DNA from: a virus
Taxonomy: Duplodnaviria > Heunggongvirae > Uroviricota > Caudoviricetes
IMG/VR virus record: IMGVR_UViG_2529292919_000025
DNA length: 43,511 bases
Reading direction: 5' to 3' (one strand)
Shown here one piece after another: positions 10,665 through 17,319 of the stretch. The position numbers were made by a program, and so were the translations under genes. The stretch's first letter is position 1. The number at the start of each line of letters is the position of its first letter. The notes beneath the pieces are model-generated. The model was not told the origin of the DNA and did not search any database. It saw nothing but the letters and a program-made list of their open reading frames with translations.

Positions 10665-11545
10665 ACACTCCTCGTCAGTATTCTGGCGGCCATTGCACTT
10701 AATCCCGGAGACATGCGGTTGAATGCTGTGCCGGCGGCGTTAAGCTGCCCGGAAACGGTATCCAGAGCACCTGCAATATTTCTTTTGTCCACACCACTCA
10801 GCGCAGACTGTGCCTGCTGTACATACGTGACTGCTTCGCTGGCTGTTCTGGCCAGACTGATGGCATCGGGCATGGATTCAGAGAGTGCGTTAAACGCCGG
10901 AACACTTTTCCCCAGAGCCCCGGAGATATTACCCAGTCCGCTCATCAGCCCCGGCACACGGGTCAGTGCGACAACGGGGTTATCCTTCATTTTCTGTGTC
11001 ACCCGAACGGCGCTGATAGTGGTCTGGAGTACAGACTGCGCCTGTTTCGCATAGTTGACGCCGTTGCGGATGAACTGCGCCACCCCTGAAGGTGAAGGTA
11101 TGGCACCGGAGACCGCCCCGACACCCGGGAGCTTCGTGCGTATTGCCGGTGGTTGCAGAGGATTTTTCGGGTCACCGGTGTATTCCCGGAGAGACACGGT
11201 GGCACTGACAGCCAGCACGTTGCCGGTACTGTCAGTCTGCTCGCTGGTTGCAGTCACATCGGTAATCACGAACCAGCCGCGATAGTCACCGTTGCCGAAG
11301 ACCAGCGCCAGTGCCTGATGGGCTTTCATGGCTGTTCGCAGTCTCGCCAGCTCCACATCGGGTACACAATAATGCTGATGGAAAACCAGAGTTATCTGGA
11401 TTTCGTCCAGCCTGTCGCCGACGAACTGCAGGCCAGGCTTACCCCCGATGCGGGCATGCTCCGCATAATCGACGCCGAACGTGGCCTCGAAGCCGTCCCA
11501 GTAGGTAATCAGCTCAAACTCAATATCACCCAGTACGGCAAACAT
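10661..11545 (-). CDS. Tail protein (P2 gpU-like N-terminus; Mu gp43 DNA-circulation position)
   Basis: 294 aa immediately after tape measure; N-terminal ~110 aa gpU-like, Ser/Ala-rich C-terminus. Confidence 0.55.
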   Translation of the reverse strand: MFAVLGDIEFELITYWDGFEATFGVDYAEHARIGGKPGLQFVGDRLDEIQITLVFHQHYCVPDVELARLRTAMKAHQALALVFGNGDYRGWFVITDVTATSEQTDSTGNVLAVSATVSLREYTGDPKNPLQPPAIRTKLPGVGAVSGAIPSPSGVAQFIRNGVNYAKQAQSVLQTTISAVRVTQKMKDNPVVALTRVPGLMSGLGNISGALGKSVPAFNALSESMPDAISLARTASEAVTYVQQAQSALSGVDKRNIAGALDTVSGQLNAAGTAFNRMSPGLSAMAARILTRSV

Positions 11546-14496
11546 CAGCGGTACTCCTTACGTTGTTTCTGAGCCAGCAGACGCTCCAGCATTTTTTCCA
11601 GCTCATGCAGGCTCATATTCAGGGCGCCAGTCAGTCCGGCAGGCGCTGTGGTTTCCCTGCCATTGAGGAAAAACTGAGGATTAAAGCTGACCTGGATACC
11701 ACCAGACGTTCCACCGCCGGTTGCAGCTGCACCACGGCCTGAATATCCGGCAGCCATGATTTCAGGCGAGGGGATACGGGGAACATCCGGTGTCATCTCA
11801 TTTGCCAGACGTTGCCCTGGTAAAATCGATGCCCGGGTGGAGAGCGGGATAGCGGGCATGGAAGACAAACTATTGATTACGGCTCCGATCGCATTTTTAG
11901 CAGACGACATAAACCCGTTGATATCGGGCAACGGCATACTGAAGCGAACACCTGAAGTGTTATCCCGTATTTCTGGCCCCTGAATGCTCACGGGCATTCT
12001 GGGGAGCAGTTCACTGGCCATTCGCTGCCCGGCCAGAGCTGCAAGCGGAGTGGTCCGCTGCAGGCCAATGGCGGCCCCCTGCGCGATATTGTCACCAAAG
12101 CCCATAAACACGCGGCTCGGCGAATGAATACCCAGCTTTTCACTGAACCAGCCACTGATGCTGTCACCCATTCCGGTTACACTGGATTTGAGCGACTCCC
12201 ATTTGTTTTTGATACCGTTAATCAGACCGTCGACAAGATGGCCACCGAAGTCGGTGAACTTTGCCGGCAGATCAACACCAAGATATTTCAGCGCAGCTGC
12301 AAAGGCTTTATAGAGCAGACCTGCCGGCGACCAGTTAATCAGCAGCTTACCAGTTCCCGCGATACCGCCGTTAAAGGCTTCCTGAATGTCAGCCCAGCAC
12401 TGTTTAAACCAGCTACTGATGCTGTCACCCATTCCGGTTACACTGGATTTGAGCGACCCCCATTTGTTTTTGATACCGTTAATCAGACCGTCGATAAGAT
12501 GGCCACCGAAGTCGGTGAACTTTGCCGGCAGAGCAACGCCGAAATATTTCAGCGCAGCCGCAAAGGCTTTATAGAGCAGGCCTGCCGGCGACCAGTTAAT
12601 CAGCAACTTACCAATTCCCACAATGCCGCCGTTAAAGGCTTCCTGAATGTCTGCCCAGCGCTGTTTAAACCAGCCACTGACTGCCCCCCAGTTGCGGTAG
12701 ATAAGGTAAGCTGCTGCCGCGACAGCGGTGATAACGAGACCGATGGGATTCATCATCAGCGCACGTCCAATCCAGAGAACAGCACGTCCGGCGAGCATAA
12801 TTCCGCGAACCAGCCCCCCGGAGAGCACGCCACTCAGTGTTCTGGCTCCTCTGGCGACGGCGCTAAATCCGGTCACCAGCCAGCGGAGCTTACCGCCTTG
12901 CCCCAGTGCGAGCGACAGACGAAGCCAGTTGGCCCGAAGTAAAACAGCATTTTTCCAGACACTTACAAAGGGGGAAATAAGGAGATTCAGCCCCAGTTTG
13001 AGACCAACAGTCGCTATCTTAATCGCAAGGAGCGCACTGATGAGCTTAAAAGCCCCACTGACAAATTGCGGGTGAGTCGCTACCCAGTGTTTTGCCCCCT
13101 GAATGAGTGGAAGCAGTTCCTGAGTCAAAGAAATAAAAGATGGAGCTAATTGATCGCCCAGCGTAATTGCCAGATCGCGACTGCTGACCATAAGTGTTTT
13201 AGTGGCTTCAAGGGGGGATTTCAGCCGCTGATCATAAGCACTGGCAAGCAAATCGTTATCCGCAGCCCTGAGAGCACCGGCACGGATCTCTCGATATCTG
13301 TCCATGTTGGCCAGCATCGGGCGGATAAATGCCATGACCTGCATATCCGCGAACATATCGCCCAGACCAAAGTTTTTCGCCAGAGCCTGAAGTGCCTCAT
13401 CTCTTGCCGTATCATTCTTTATTTTCATGGCTGATTTGAAGCCGGCCAGCGCTTCGGGGCTTTTGGCATTGAGGTAACGTTCTATAACACTCAACATCCC
13501 TTCAATCGGAGAGATCCCCGCAGCTTTATAACTCGCAATAGATCCCTGCAAATCAATACCCAGATCAGCAAACTGTTTCTGAGTATCGCGGGCAAAAATT
13601 TTGGTAAGAAAGTTTTTAAAATTATTGGCTGCTTCGTCGGTGGAACCTGCACCGATTTTTGCTATCTGGAGACTGGCCCCGATTTCAGCAACAGCCTCTT
13701 TTCCACTGGCAATACCCGCCATCATTGGGGCCAGGGACTGCATCCACTTGACCTGATCCGGAATTTCAAATGACCCCTGGTCACCGGCATAAGCCATAAT
13801 ATTCTGAACGGCACCAAAATCTCTGGCCGCACCTTTCAGGGAGTTTTGCCAGACTGCGGCCACTTTTGCCCAGTCCTGAGCAGACGTGCGTGTTGCCGTT
13901 GCCGCGCGGGCAATATCCGGCATCAGAAAACCGATATCTGACACATTATCAATATTGTCGCTGATGAGTGAACCCACCGCCTCCTGCAACTCATCCTGAT
14001 ACTGATTGTATTTAAGCGCCCAGCCTTTTATCTGTCCGGCAAGTCCATCCCGCGTTTTATTGTCATATTTTGCGGTGATCGACATATCAATCATTTTGTC
14101 CTGAAAAGACATGGACTGCTGAACGGCAGGGGAAACCGTATGATAAACAGTCTGTGCCATGCCATACGCTTCAATCCCCTGACCATACAGCGCCATGCGG
14201 TTAGCTTTCAGCGCATCACTGGTAGCGGATGCCGCTGACAGACGGCGCTGCTGGCGCTCAATTTGCTCCATGGTGCGGCTTACCCGCAGCAGCTCGCTGT
14301 TGAGATGCTGCATCCGGGAAGAACCCAGTTGACCATAACGTTCTGTTGCACGGGTTAAAGCGTTCTGACGTTCCTGCAGGCGGCGTGAGGTATCGCTCAG
14401 GGAATCAAGCGCACGGCGGGTACCGCTCATTGCAGAACGGAATGTGCTACCAATCATCCCGCCGATAACAACGCCGACTGAAAACTGTCCCGACAT
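11545..14496 (-). CDS. Tail tape measure protein
   Basis: 983 aa, alpha-helical and Gly/Ala-rich, after the tail chaperone pair; contains an internal 88-aa tandem duplication. Confidence 0.85.
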   Translation of the reverse strand: MSGQFSVGVVIGGMIGSTFRSAMSGTRRALDSLSDTSRRLQERQNALTRATERYGQLGSSRMQHLNSELLRVSRTMEQIERQQRRLSAASATSDALKANRMALYGQGIEAYGMAQTVYHTVSPAVQQSMSFQDKMIDMSITAKYDNKTRDGLAGQIKGWALKYNQYQDELQEAVGSLISDNIDNVSDIGFLMPDIARAATATRTSAQDWAKVAAVWQNSLKGAARDFGAVQNIMAYAGDQGSFEIPDQVKWMQSLAPMMAGIASGKEAVAEIGASLQIAKIGAGSTDEAANNFKNFLTKIFARDTQKQFADLGIDLQGSIASYKAAGISPIEGMLSVIERYLNAKSPEALAGFKSAMKIKNDTARDEALQALAKNFGLGDMFADMQVMAFIRPMLANMDRYREIRAGALRAADNDLLASAYDQRLKSPLEATKTLMVSSRDLAITLGDQLAPSFISLTQELLPLIQGAKHWVATHPQFVSGAFKLISALLAIKIATVGLKLGLNLLISPFVSVWKNAVLLRANWLRLSLALGQGGKLRWLVTGFSAVARGARTLSGVLSGGLVRGIMLAGRAVLWIGRALMMNPIGLVITAVAAAAYLIYRNWGAVSGWFKQRWADIQEAFNGGIVGIGKLLINWSPAGLLYKAFAAALKYFGVALPAKFTDFGGHLIDGLINGIKNKWGSLKSSVTGMGDSISSWFKQCWADIQEAFNGGIAGTGKLLINWSPAGLLYKAFAAALKYLGVDLPAKFTDFGGHLVDGLINGIKNKWESLKSSVTGMGDSISGWFSEKLGIHSPSRVFMGFGDNIAQGAAIGLQRTTPLAALAGQRMASELLPRMPVSIQGPEIRDNTSGVRFSMPLPDINGFMSSAKNAIGAVINSLSSMPAIPLSTRASILPGQRLANEMTPDVPRIPSPEIMAAGYSGRGAAATGGGTSGGIQVSFNPQFFLNGRETTAPAGLTGALNMSLHELEKMLERLLAQKQRKEYR
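12151..12678. repeat. Tandem duplication (2 x ~264 bp) inside the tape measure gene
   Basis: Two near-identical adjacent DNA copies encoding SGWFKQ(R/C)WADIQEAFNGGI...GMGDSIS; boundaries approximate. Confidence 0.65.
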
Positions 14497-14571
14497 AGTG
14501 GTTAACCTCCGGGGAAGGTGAAAAGACGTGAGGGGATAACGCAGAACAGCCGCTACTGGCGGCTGTCTGTA

Positions 14572-14829
14572 CTATGATTTGTCGCCGTACTCGCTTTTGA
14601 TTTGCTCTTCAGCCTGCTCCAGCCACATCTCCAGATCGTCAGTATCGAGGGCATCAATCTCCCCCGGCTGAAACCGGAACCATCTCGCCAGCAGCCCCTG
14701 CGCCTGCGTCAGCGCCTTTGTCGCTCTCACCCATCCCCGTGATGAGCTGAAATCGTTTCTGTAACTGCAGGTAATCAGCCAGGTCCATATTGTCGAGATC
14801 TTCCGGGAGAAGACCAGTACTGCGGGCAA
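14572..14829 (-). CDS. Tail assembly chaperone frameshift extension (gpE'/GT-like), downstream frame
   Basis: ORF in the +1 frame relative to 14654-14989, overlapping it by 176 nt and extending 27 codons further towards the tape measure. Confidence 0.45.
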   Translation of the reverse strand: MPAVLVFSRKISTIWTWLITCSYRNDFSSSRGWVRATKALTQAQGLLARWFRFQPGEIDALDTDDLEMWLEQAEEQIKSEYGDKS

Positions 14830-14989
14830 TCAGCGGTTCGTCCCAGTCTGCCGGGTTTTTGCTGATTTTGCGCACCTGCTTCAGGTCTTTTACCGTCAGG
14901 CGTTTCAGTTCAACCTGCTCAATTCTGGTGCCTGCAGCAGTGGTGAAGGGATAAGACAATTTAAAAGTATCGGATGGGGTCTGTGACAT
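14654..14989 (-). CDS. Tail assembly chaperone (gpE/G-like), upstream frame
   Basis: 111 aa directly upstream of the tape measure; acidic C-terminus; overlapped by a second ORF in another frame. Confidence 0.6.
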   Translation of the reverse strand: MSQTPSDTFKLSYPFTTAAGTRIEQVELKRLTVKDLKQVRKISKNPADWDEPLIARSTGLLPEDLDNMDLADYLQLQKRFQLITGMGESDKGADAGAGAAGEMVPVSAGGD

Positions 14990-15086
14990 GATTGTGCTCC
15001 TGTGTAAGTTCAGGGCAGTATGTCGGGAGAAGCGCGTGACGGATATTAAAGGAGATTAAGAAGAAGGGGCCGGAGCCCCTGTGATG

Positions 15087-15368
15087 TCAGCAAGTGCGAA
15101 ACCCCTTGCAGTTACGCAGGAAAGCGATGAGAAGCGTCTTTCCCTCAGATTTGCCGATGCCGGAGAACCAGTGGTCGGGAGGCTCCCATGCTTCAATCAA
15201 ATCCGCCAGTTTGCGGGCCTTTGAACGTGTGCAGTCAATCGGGTCATTGGTTTTACGGGTATTAAAAAGGGTTTCCACCCCCGGAATATCAAGGAGGGTA
15301 AACCACGTACCATTTGACATGCCCAGTGCCGCACATCGTCCTCCTTTATCCGTCAGTTCAACACTCAC
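15087..15368 (-). CDS. Hypothetical protein between tail tube and chaperone
   Basis: 93-aa ORF starting 3 nt after the tube stop, on the late strand; no motif. Confidence 0.4.
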   Translation of the reverse strand: MSVELTDKGGRCAALGMSNGTWFTLLDIPGVETLFNTRKTNDPIDCTRSKARKLADLIEAWEPPDHWFSGIGKSEGKTLLIAFLRNCKGFRTC

Positions 15369-15370
15369 CG

Positions 15371-15892
15371 TCAGCCCCCGATATTGATACGGTAGTCAGT
15401 CAGTTGATCAACACCGCCGACCCGGAAGATGTTGGCCAGATAGTCCAGTTGCAGCAGCTCTTCACCATCCAGTACCTGTCTGATATACGTGCAGGTGAAG
15501 CTACTGGAGAACTCGGCGTTCTCGTGCTGTTTGAACGTCCCCAGCGGGTTCTTCTTGAACATAATCGTCAGGAAGGTGACCAGCGGGATTTCGTCAATCA
15601 GCCCCTGCGAGCTGTAGCGCTGGACGCTGGAACGACACTGCAGTGCCAGCGACCTGTACGGGTTCGCGGCAGACAGCATCGCATCGCGGTAAAAGCTGTT
15701 CCATTTGATTTCGCCTTCCAGTTTGTCAAAACCAGCCGGGAGTTCCACCTTACCCACCATCCCCAGCGCCTTGTGTTCCTGCATAATCATGGAGACATCG
15801 GGGAGTTTAACTTCCTCAGCCCGTCCCAGCAGGTTAGTACCATCCAGATAGATGTTGGCATTCGTGATGCGGTTTATCTCAATCTTTGACAT
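15371..15892 (-). CDS. Tail tube protein (FII-like / Mu M position)
   Basis: 173 aa immediately downstream of the sheath, 1-nt overlap. Confidence 0.75.
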   Translation of the reverse strand: MSKIEINRITNANIYLDGTNLLGRAEEVKLPDVSMIMQEHKALGMVGKVELPAGFDKLEGEIKWNSFYRDAMLSAANPYRSLALQCRSSVQRYSSQGLIDEIPLVTFLTIMFKKNPLGTFKQHENAEFSSSFTCTYIRQVLDGEELLQLDYLANIFRVGGVDQLTDYRINIGG

Positions 15893-17319
15893 CAGTTGCC
15901 CCCTTTCAGGGTTAACAGGTATTCCGAGGTGATCTCAGTCTCAAACGTCAGTCGCTCCAGCGGCGGTGGTGGCGTATATTTGTAGCTCAGCAACAGGTGC
16001 CCGGCGGCCAGCTCCGTCTCCGGATTGCGGGCCGGATCAAACCAGCAACGGAAGCCCAGTACCGCACCATCACCAGTCATTTTGCGACCGTAGGCGTTGA
16101 CCGACTCCGTCAGTGCATCAATCAGCGCCTGAGTAATCGGCATGTCGATGTACTGCTGGCTGAAATAACGAATGGACTCGTTGATCACATCACCGGTGCG
16201 GCGAACGTTCTCAAAGTTACGCATATGGGTGACCGTTGGCCATGCTGCCGTCCGGTTACCCCACAGACGAAGGCCGCTGCCGTAACTGCTGAATACCGTG
16301 GTGATCCCCTGTTCGTTAAGCAGGTTCACCTCACTCTGCGGGTCATCAATCATCGCGGACAGCTGGCGCTCCACGCCGGTGATCCCCAGAATCTCCTGAT
16401 TGGAGGATGACCACCAGTAGCCCTTGTCCAGATCGACTCTGGCACGCAGACCTGCTGCACGCTGGCTGAGCGGCTCCAGACGCTCTGTGTTTGTCACCGG
16501 GTCATATACCTTCACATGCGGATAGCACAGACGGACGCGGTCGGAGCTGGTATTGAAGTTGATGGTGCCTTCCGGGCCACGACCTGCCAGAGCCTGTGCA
16601 AAGGTGGTACCGACAGGCGCATCAATGTAGGTTACCGCGCCCAGCTTCTCTGCCATGGCGATAAGCTCAACTGCGACACTCTTCTGGGTGCAGAACACCG
16701 GCGCAATCAGAATTTTGGCGAAATAGCCGTACAGGTTGAAGCTGTCGTTAAGCAGCTTCATGCCGGTTCGGTTTCCGGCGCTGTTCACCCCGCCGATGAT
16801 GTCCGCCGCAGTCACCTTCGACGGGTCCGCGTACTCATAGCTCACCTTCACGCTGCCACCGGCCTCAATAGCCTTGCCCAGGTTCGTGAGCACACCCGCC
16901 TGCGCATCAACACGGTAGTCCGTGTTCGCCGTGTGGGTGGTGCTGCCTTCACTGTTTTTCACCACCACATTAGCGACAACCGGATGCGCCAGTCTGGCCT
17001 GCCCTGTCGATTTGTCAAAGGTAACCACCTCATCCTCGATCGCCGTTTTATGTTTCGCCGGGTCGAGGACGTTAATGACCAGAACGGTGCCTGCACCATG
17101 GTCATAAATCGCATCCAGCGCCTGCGGAATGGTAAAGCCGGTGAACTGGCTGCCAAATGCCGCTGCGTCTTTCTCAGACAGGCACTGTACCAGCGTATTG
17201 ACATCCCCCATCGGGGCGGTACCAATCAGGCCAATAACGGCAGATTTCACCGTTTTAACCGGGCGGGCTCCGTTTTCCACCTCAATGGTTTCGGGACCAT
17301 GCAGATAGTTAGCTGCCAT
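15892..17319 (-). CDS. Contractile tail sheath protein (Mu L-like)
   Basis: 475 aa, sheath-like sequence, followed by tube gene. Confidence 0.8.
   Translation of the reverse strand: MAANYLHGPETIEVENGARPVKTVKSAVIGLIGTAPMGDVNTLVQCLSEKDAAAFGSQFTGFTIPQALDAIYDHGAGTVLVINVLDPAKHKTAIEDEVVTFDKSTGQARLAHPVVANVVVKNSEGSTTHTANTDYRVDAQAGVLTNLGKAIEAGGSVKVSYEYADPSKVTAADIIGGVNSAGNRTGMKLLNDSFNLYGYFAKILIAPVFCTQKSVAVELIAMAEKLGAVTYIDAPVGTTFAQALAGRGPEGTINFNTSSDRVRLCYPHVKVYDPVTNTERLEPLSQRAAGLRARVDLDKGYWWSSSNQEILGITGVERQLSAMIDDPQSEVNLLNEQGITTVFSSYGSGLRLWGNRTAAWPTVTHMRNFENVRRTGDVINESIRYFSQQYIDMPITQALIDALTESVNAYGRKMTGDGAVLGFRCWFDPARNPETELAAGHLLLSYKYTPPPPLERLTFETEITSEYLLTLKGGN

Follow-up and report, generated by a model that had tools for sequence, protein, structure and literature searches.

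Sequence comparison points to a likely programmed +1 frameshift at a conserved UUU_C motif in the tail assembly chaperone genes of a BcepMu-like prophage

Frameshifts in tail-chaperone genes are a textbook case of recoding. Among them is the -2 frameshift of phage Mu, for which Xu, Hendrix & Duda 2004 is reportedly the source. In Mu, gp41 and Mu_56 are joined by this shift on CGG_GGG_CGA, which is annotated as verified (PMC5009743; GenBank AF083977 note). Tail-chaperone frameshifts of -1, -2, and +1 are known in general (PMC5009743). In phage lambda, a -1 shift at G_GGA_AAG gives two products, gpG and gpGT, that have a common N-terminus, are made in a fixed low ratio, and are encoded between the major tail and tape-measure genes; neither is present in the virion (PMC5009743). 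Phage P2 also uses a -1 frameshift, which occurs at TTTTTTG (Christie et al. 2002, via PMC3091744; GenBank AF063097). The E' frame of P2 is annotated only within the resulting fusion, and its shift site is without a downstream RNA structure (PMC3091744). Many cases of forward frameshifting have been annotated in actinophages, and forward (+1) sites are without an agreed motif (PMC10885494), which is why they usually go unannotated.

Here, we describe a tail-chaperone locus in a window of 43,511 nt, the whole stretch of viral DNA that was analysed (IMG/VR record IMGVR_UViG_2529292919_000025). The features of the locus and its surroundings are collected in Table 1. Two overlapping minus-strand ORFs lie between the tail tube and tape-measure genes, which are on the minus strand as well, and the pair is thus placed as in the lambda G/GT class. 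This order of tube, chaperone, and tape measure is canonical. ORF2 extends 82 nt (27 codons) beyond the ORF1 stop and its TTG is merely the first start codon after a stop. The first-pass annotation of this DNA had described the overlap, the additional codons, and the position upstream of the tape measure, and recomputing the coordinates showed that it was right in every detail. It had also placed the second frame at +1 (or, equivalently, -2) relative to the first. This holds for the window, where (14989-14829) mod 3 = 1, and the same frame is found in 151 of 157 related loci.

Table 1. Positions of the chaperone locus, its candidate shift sites, and neighboring features in the window
Feature	Position	Strand	Remarks
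ORF1	14654..14989	-	ATG start; 111 aa, 12.0 kDa; TGA stop 14656..14654
ORF2	14572..14829	-	mechanical TTG start; 85 aa; TAG stop 14574..14572
ORF1/ORF2 overlap	14654..14829	-	176 nt
Upstream part of mechanical ORF2	14752..14829	-	open in +1 frame, from TTG 14829 up to slip site
Proposed +1 shift site, CGA_UUU_C	14749..14755	-	CGA 14755..14753 (Arg79), UUU 14752..14750 (Phe80), C 14749
+1-frame segment, E'/'T'-like domain	14572..14751	-	TTC, then 58 codons (SSSRGWVR...LLARWFRFQPGEIDAL...GDKS), TAG
Secondary candidate, ACG_GGG_A	14740..14734	-	GGG_A at Gly85; conserved part of E' starts with Trp codon 14733..14731
GGGGG run	14661..14665	-	near ORF1 3' end, two codons before stop; decoy
Tape-measure gene	11545..14496	-	983 aa; PF10145, E=2e-20; directly downstream of ORF1/ORF2
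Tail tube gene (P2 FII type)	15371..15892	-	PF04985, E=2.9e-53; upstream of chaperone pair
Sheath gene	15892..17319	-	upstream of chaperone pair
93-aa ORF	15087..15368	-	separates tube gene and chaperone gene
Terminator-like hairpin	15065..15080	-	GC hairpin and T-rich tail (AGGGGCTCCGGCCCCT TCTTCTT)
Inverted repeat	14546..14566	-	perfect, 8 bp: ACAGCCGC-cagta-GCGGCTGT; between E' stop and tape-measure start
Tandem repeat	12146..12680	-	261 bp, 2.0 copies, 93% identity; within tape-measure gene

Residues 8-81 of ORF1 match PF10109 (E=3.5e-22, 78.7 bits, cut-off 25). This family, 'Phage tail assembly chaperone proteins, E, or 41 or 14' (Phage_TAC_7), is that of P2 gpE and Mu gp41. ORF1 also matches phrog_166 (tail) and is, by these matches, a zero-frame tail assembly chaperone of the gpE/gp41 type. 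Beyond about residue 87, the ORF1 tail is low-complexity and differs in length among relatives, in which the stop lies 6 to 108 nt past the codon for Phe80; a 90-aa variant of ORF1 (P0013) is present on 914 contigs. The C-terminal half encoded by the +1 frame has a sub-threshold match to PF06528, the E' part of P2 GpE (E=0.036, 14 bits against a cut-off of 23), and the frame strongly matches phrog_8286 (E=8e-34). A profile built from +1-frame segments taken from 14 diverse relatives aligned with a P2-type E' profile (hhalign 97.6%, E=4.3e-12), and five of the 14 segments matched PF06528 individually (best E=6.4e-6). Taken together, the PF10109 match of ORF1 and the E' profile match indicate that the locus is an E/E' pair, with a predicted homologue of P2 E' encoded in the +1 frame. 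Searches of ORF1, ORF2, and the predicted fusion against NCBIfam returned no meaningful match, the one sub-threshold match being spurious, and a sequence search of the PDB returned no match.

The arrangement of the two frames was compared across 157 loci from IMG/VR and from phage records. Five chaperone queries had retrieved them, namely the type found in the window and the Salmonella, Ralstonia, BcepMu, and Pseudomonas types. Using HMMs for the chaperone and E' domains, for which Mu is too distant, E' was located in the +1 frame in all but six of these loci. Of these six, three have a -1-frame E' (P2, a Pasteurella phage, and a further locus), one is joined in frame through a 1-nt deletion, and two are poor matches. 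In a second, independent sample, which consists of loci found by the E' motif alone with one genome per species, 54 of 56 usable species genomes have E' in the +1 frame. Relatives with as little as 26-45% protein identity share the +1 arrangement, which spans the enteric, Ralstonia, Burkholderia, and Pseudomonas types. Among phage records, Escherichia phage PhiKM (Bcepmuvirus) is the closest, with 99.3% identity. The locus with its split arrangement is also present in E. coli, in 641 out of 5426 complete genomes, and in 558 of these the identity is at least 99%. From these comparisons, we consider it very probable that the locus uses a programmed frameshift. An unusual programmed frameshift was one of the two explanations that the first-pass annotation had offered, and it gains support from the PF10109 match of ORF1, the E' homologue in the +1 frame, and the preservation of the +1 relationship across clades.

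The stops found in relatives confine the shift to -8 to +6 nt around the TTT of the Phe codon, a bracketing that presumes a homologous shift site across clades. On the upstream side, the +1 frame opens merely 8 nt before the codon aligned with Phe80 in Ralstonia- and Pseudomonas-type loci. On the downstream side, the zero frame ends 6 nt (L201), 18-27 nt (L203, L210, L200, and L097), or more past the Phe codon. TTT_C is the sole invariant slip-prone motif within this bracket. The aligned codon is TTT followed by C in every locus with a +1-frame E' (151/151 in the first sample and 54/54 in the second, 205/205 in all), a count that overstates the number of independent observations as the loci are phylogenetically related. 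The first-pass annotation had pointed to the overlap as the place to look for a slippery site, and this conserved TTT_C (14752..14749) is what the search of the overlap found; no heptamer is present there.

The choice of codons at the motif is conserved beyond what is seen in its surroundings. The motif is invariant also in GC-rich clades, where TTT accounts for 19-25% of Phe codons; elsewhere, the TTT fraction of Phe codons is 0.19-0.55, and CGA makes up 7-17% of the Arg codons nearby. CGA precedes TTT in 114/114 distinct IMG/VR loci of the enteric and Ralstonia-type clades, and one locus of the species sample (L185) has CGG in its place. Among 55 distinct close relatives, CGA and TTT are without synonymous variation, whereas 74 of 78 upstream third positions vary. 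It should be noted that Phe80 itself is conserved in the chaperone domain and that the nucleotide-level conservation is that of the codon choice and the following C alone. In the same 55 relatives, 55% of substitutions in ORF1 codons 1-78 fall at third positions of frame 0, and after about codon 82, 55% fall at third positions of the +1 frame. Since the periodicity of codons 1-78 is that of frame 0 and the +1 frame of relatives is closed by stops 26, 14, or just 8 nt upstream of TTT, the upstream part of ORF2 is probably not translated. The part of the +1 frame that looks translated is only that from 14751 downstream. Of the sites considered, UUU_C is the best supported, and a +1 slip at this position is the likely origin of a tail-assembly chaperone pair.

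In the proposed mechanism, one start codon would serve both products of a pair of the P2 E/E+E' (lambda G/GT) type. Most ribosomes would stay in frame and produce the 111-aa chaperone. A minority would slip +1 with tRNA-Phe in the P site on UUU, the tRNA would re-pair with the overlapping UUC (14751..14749), and reading would resume at AGC in the +1 frame and continue to the TAG at 14574..14572. The predicted fusion consists of ORF1 residues 1-80 and a 58-aa E'-like domain, amounting to 138 aa and 15.8 kDa, and its predicted tryptic junction peptides are R/FSSSR/GWVR. If the pair works as lambda gpG/gpGT do, the N-terminal domain shared by both products would bind the presumed client, the tape-measure protein, and tube subunits would be recruited by the rare C-terminal domain. 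What we infer from the sequences is the slip as such, that it goes +1 rather than -2, how efficient it is, and what each product does. With regard to direction, the +1 re-pairing from UUU to UUC is perfect because tRNA-Phe reads both codons, and a -2 slip from UUU, which would land on GAU, CCU, or UGU, is not credible. The zero-frame codon in the A site is CAG, which is common and not rare, and the efficiency of the slip may be low. As a speculation, the conserved CGA could perhaps act through a weakly paired tRNA in the E site.

A UUU codon followed by a pyrimidine is reportedly prone to +1 shifts in E. coli, as is said to follow from Fu & Parker 1994 (argI) and Schwartz & Curran 1997. The locus has the same in-frame UUU followed by C (14752..14750 and 14749) and the same perfect +1 pairing of tRNA-Phe. 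The E. coli sites were described as translational errors or in engineered contexts, whereas the site here would be evolutionarily fixed and used. No stimulatory element was found with the methods applied. RNAfold of the region around the site (14640..14775) gave no significant structure upstream or downstream (z=0.30), RNAalifold gave no consensus structure over 88 distinct sequences, and z-scores calculated per lineage were inconsistent. Upstream, no general SD-like stimulator motif is present across the loci, with GAGG occurring only in the Pseudomonas-type clade. Transcriptional slippage was considered as a separate route and rejected, the run of three T being too short.

By function, the locus would be a lambda G/GT or P2 E/E+E' system, and homology groups it with P2 E/E' and Mu gp41. 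Like P2 gpE/gpE+E', it combines PF10109 in the chaperone with an E' domain of the PF06528 type, and it occupies the same slot between the tube (FII) and tape-measure (T) genes. The product sizes are 91/142 aa in P2 and 111/138 aa here, the 138 aa being predicted. In addition, the P2 shift occurs, like the one proposed here, at a Phe codon/T tract that ends the chaperone domain, and in an alignment it falls within ~3 residues of Phe80. The two differ in that E' is in the -1 frame in P2 and in the +1 frame in the family of the window. The T_TTT_TTG heptamer of P2 is without a counterpart of the form X_XXY_YYZ in the overlap, and the (CGA_)UUU_C motif needs a +1 slip by a single tRNA, whereas P2 uses a tandem -1 slip.

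Mu and the locus agree in the +1/-2 relationship of the extension to the chaperone and in gene position, and both belong to a Mu-like transposable-phage backbone, the closest phage, PhiKM, being placed in Bcepmuvirus. In Mu, however, the slip takes place on a G run, where tRNA-Gly re-pairs 2 nt upstream, and no G run is conserved family-wide here. The comparison with lambda is one of function, as no sequence similarity was seen, the direction and site of the shift differ, and the tail is contractile here and non-contractile in lambda. Thus, the locus lacks the -1 heptamer of P2 and the -2 G run of Mu and, as read from its sequence, uses a third solution.

In three genome contigs (L201, L209, and L212), the shift site reads TTT_TTT_C; although these six consecutive T recall the TTTTTTG of P2, E' occupies the +1 frame. 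The zero frame of L201 ends two codons past the site (TTT CGC TGA). The occurrence of TTT_TTT_C in three relatives and the alignment of the P2 T tract to within ~3 residues of Phe80 suggest that the -1 solution of P2 and the +1 solution at TTT_C may descend from one ancestral T tract. We are mildly inclined to extend this to a whole lineage of P2/Mu-type chaperone genes, that of the BcepMu-like prophages of Enterobacterales, Burkholderiales, Pseudomonas, and others. This lineage would use a structure-independent programmed +1 frameshift on (CGA_)UUU_C, at or near the -1 T tract of P2, and the frame of E' would decide whether the ancestral T tract gives -1 or +1.

An alternative position for a programmed slip is ACG_GGG_A, five codons downstream of the Phe codon, where tRNA-Gly could move +1 from GGG to GGA or where a Mu-like -2 slip could take place. 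The GGG at codon 85 is conserved in the clade of the window while the next base varies freely as a third position of the +1 frame, and its placement is comparable to that of the annotated -2 site of Mu, CGG_GGG_CGA, which precedes a similar GGEWLR. The switch in frame periodicity maps to codons 82-86, which fits a slip at codon 85; within the clade of the window, periodicity does not separate this site from codon 80. The GGG is, however, clade-specific. It is missing in the Salmonella type (AGC ATG G), the BcepMu type (AGC A TGG), the Lonsdalea type, and other clades that keep the +1 arrangement, and the zero frame of L201, L203, L210, and L200 does not extend past the corresponding position. 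Furthermore, the GGG is preceded by ACG or ACT, unlike in Mu, and a -2 re-pairing would hit CGG or CTG with one or two mismatches. A slip at GGG_A would also leave the invariance of CGA_TTT_C unexplained, and we regard it as improbable. The predicted junctions differ from that of UUU_C, being FQLITGWVR for +1 and FQLITGGWVR for -2 at GGG_A, with ...VSAGEIDALDTDDLEMWLEQAEEQIK as another example of a junction not formed at UUU_C.

Gene callers give a ~54-aa ORF at this position (phrog_8286), and the BcepMu record treats gp42, which it begins at an internal ATG, as a gene in its own right that slips -1 into gp43. Both would fit a model in which E' is a small separate protein, made from its own +1-frame start or by re-initiation and not fused to the chaperone. 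Against this, a +1-frame start codon with an SD-like motif before E' is lacking in 103 of the 112 distinct loci, and the conserved +1-frame residues set in directly behind TTT_C (the Ralstonia type reads FW...), at a place that offers no start. The annotated homologues in P2 and Mu are frameshift fusions, and the gp43 frame of BcepMu is a low-complexity, GC-rich read that overlaps the start of the tape-measure gene. Independent initiation of E' is disfavoured on these grounds and appears quite unlikely.

The site that would be chosen first by eye is the GGGGG run near the ORF1 stop. Its five G would allow perfect +1 or -2 re-pairing, the stop two codons downstream could slow ribosomes, and Mu does slip on a G run; the predicted junctions would be ...VSAG(G)EIDALDTDDLEMWLEQAEEQIK or ...VSAG(G)EIDAL.... 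The run was rejected as a slip site and is very improbable. It cannot be the general site because ORF1 of most relatives ends upstream of it, at a TAG 21 nt before the run or, in the 90-aa variant, 63 nt before it. The run is broken by changes that are synonymous in the +1 frame (CCT/CCA GGG), the conserved E' motif W..LLARWFRF precedes it, and purifying selection already acts on the +1 frame there, as in the change of TTC CGG TTT to TTT AGA TTT, both of which encode FRF. The rare database 'fusion' ORFs with a junction at GGGGG look like homopolymer indels.

The second explanation offered by the first-pass annotation, a sequencing indel, is rejected as next to impossible, as are an assembly indel and the decay of one original gene into a pseudogene: the split arrangement is present in the 641 E. 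coli genomes (at 99% identity or above in the 558) and across proteobacterial clades, and selection is frame-specific on either side of the site. Orthologues with one uninterrupted ORF, which the first-pass annotation had named as evidence for an indel, do exist as 138-aa ORFs in a few relatives and database proteins (L075, L169, and L199; P0001-P0005, P0007, and P0011, within the range P0001-P0011), but they are rare (2/56 and 1/57 sequences), with junctions at scattered places, most of them in G runs, as sporadic indels would produce. When the predicted fusion was searched against 5.8 billion proteins, a few uninterrupted 138-aa ORFs were likewise found, whose scattered junctions are mostly in G runs, and no annotated joined product was among the matches.

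Public protein sets also hold chimeric 'fusion' or doubly frameshifted versions of the gene (P0001-P0012, P0015, and P0023). Their junctions lie at G runs and scattered positions, and the majority derive from Logan or ENA assemblies, pointing to sporadic indels introduced in sequencing or assembly. A probable artifact of a different kind is seen in L159 (NZ_PJIO01000028.1, 'Arthrobacter sp. GMC3'), in which this enterobacterial prophage region occupies an 8241-bp contig of an actinobacterial draft genome. Its E' segment is 98% identical to that of the window at the protein level, its slip-site context is identical, and its 8241 bp are the same as those of the IMG/VR contig UViG_2865794485_000001 (L002). 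L159 is probably assembly contamination.

Returning to the +1 slip at UUU_C, its predicted product is missing from the annotations that we inspected. The E+E' product is not annotated in the PhiKM record, which lists 'tail protein E' only, in the RefSeq record examined, which lists ORF1 only, or in the BcepMu record; a prior description of the site in Xu et al. 2004 or Summer et al. 2004 is possible. The BcepMu record (L082, AY539836, 4603..5364) equates gp42 with lambda G and derives gp43 from it by a -1 slip. By homology, the real pair would be gp41, which is of the PF10109 type, and gp42, the +1-frame counterpart of E', whose TTT_C is found at TCC TTT CGC. It thus appears that the record assigns the G/T pair to the wrong ORFs. 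For KS10, no frameshift site was found (PMC2628397).

If the lineage-wide reading is true, a defined and widely conserved +1 slippery motif would be available for phage tail chaperones, the E+E' product would be absent from the RefSeq/GenBank annotations examined, and the gp42/gp43 assignment of BcepMu would be wrong. The predicted essential E+E'-like protein is unannotated in a prophage of ~12% of complete E. coli genomes, as well as in phage PhiKM and Klebsiella phage KP12. The proposed +1 shift at UUU_C would be a variant of the well-known recoding of phage tail chaperones and not a new kind. Regardless, the family provides a clean comparative case, with a shift window of ~15 nt, one invariant 4-nt motif in 205 loci, and no RNA structure detected, and the homologues that use -1 (P2) and -2 (Mu) add to its comparative value. 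It would also be a convenient system for studying how a bare UUU_C, possibly aided by the preceding CGA, sets a useful low rate of frameshifting.

Several further features were observed around the chaperone pair. The 93-aa ORF next to the tube gene has a weak match to DUF7739 (E=3.5e-5, under the cut-off) and a strong match to phrog_1239, whose function is unknown. It is listed as 'hypothetical' in PhiKM and RefSeq, and P2 is without a counterpart at that position. The terminator-like hairpin lies inside the 97-nt gap between this ORF and the chaperone start; the number of such hairpins is not above the shuffled expectation (two found, 1.0 expected). The inverted repeat ahead of the tape-measure gene has no T tail after it and is kept in many aligned orthologues. 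Within the tape-measure gene, the tandem repeat duplicates ~87 aa (SWFKQ.WADIQEAFNGGI...GMGDSIS). The tape-measure gene of PhiKM contains a sequencing gap, possibly owing to this repeat, and the duplication in the tape-measure protein could make the tail longer.
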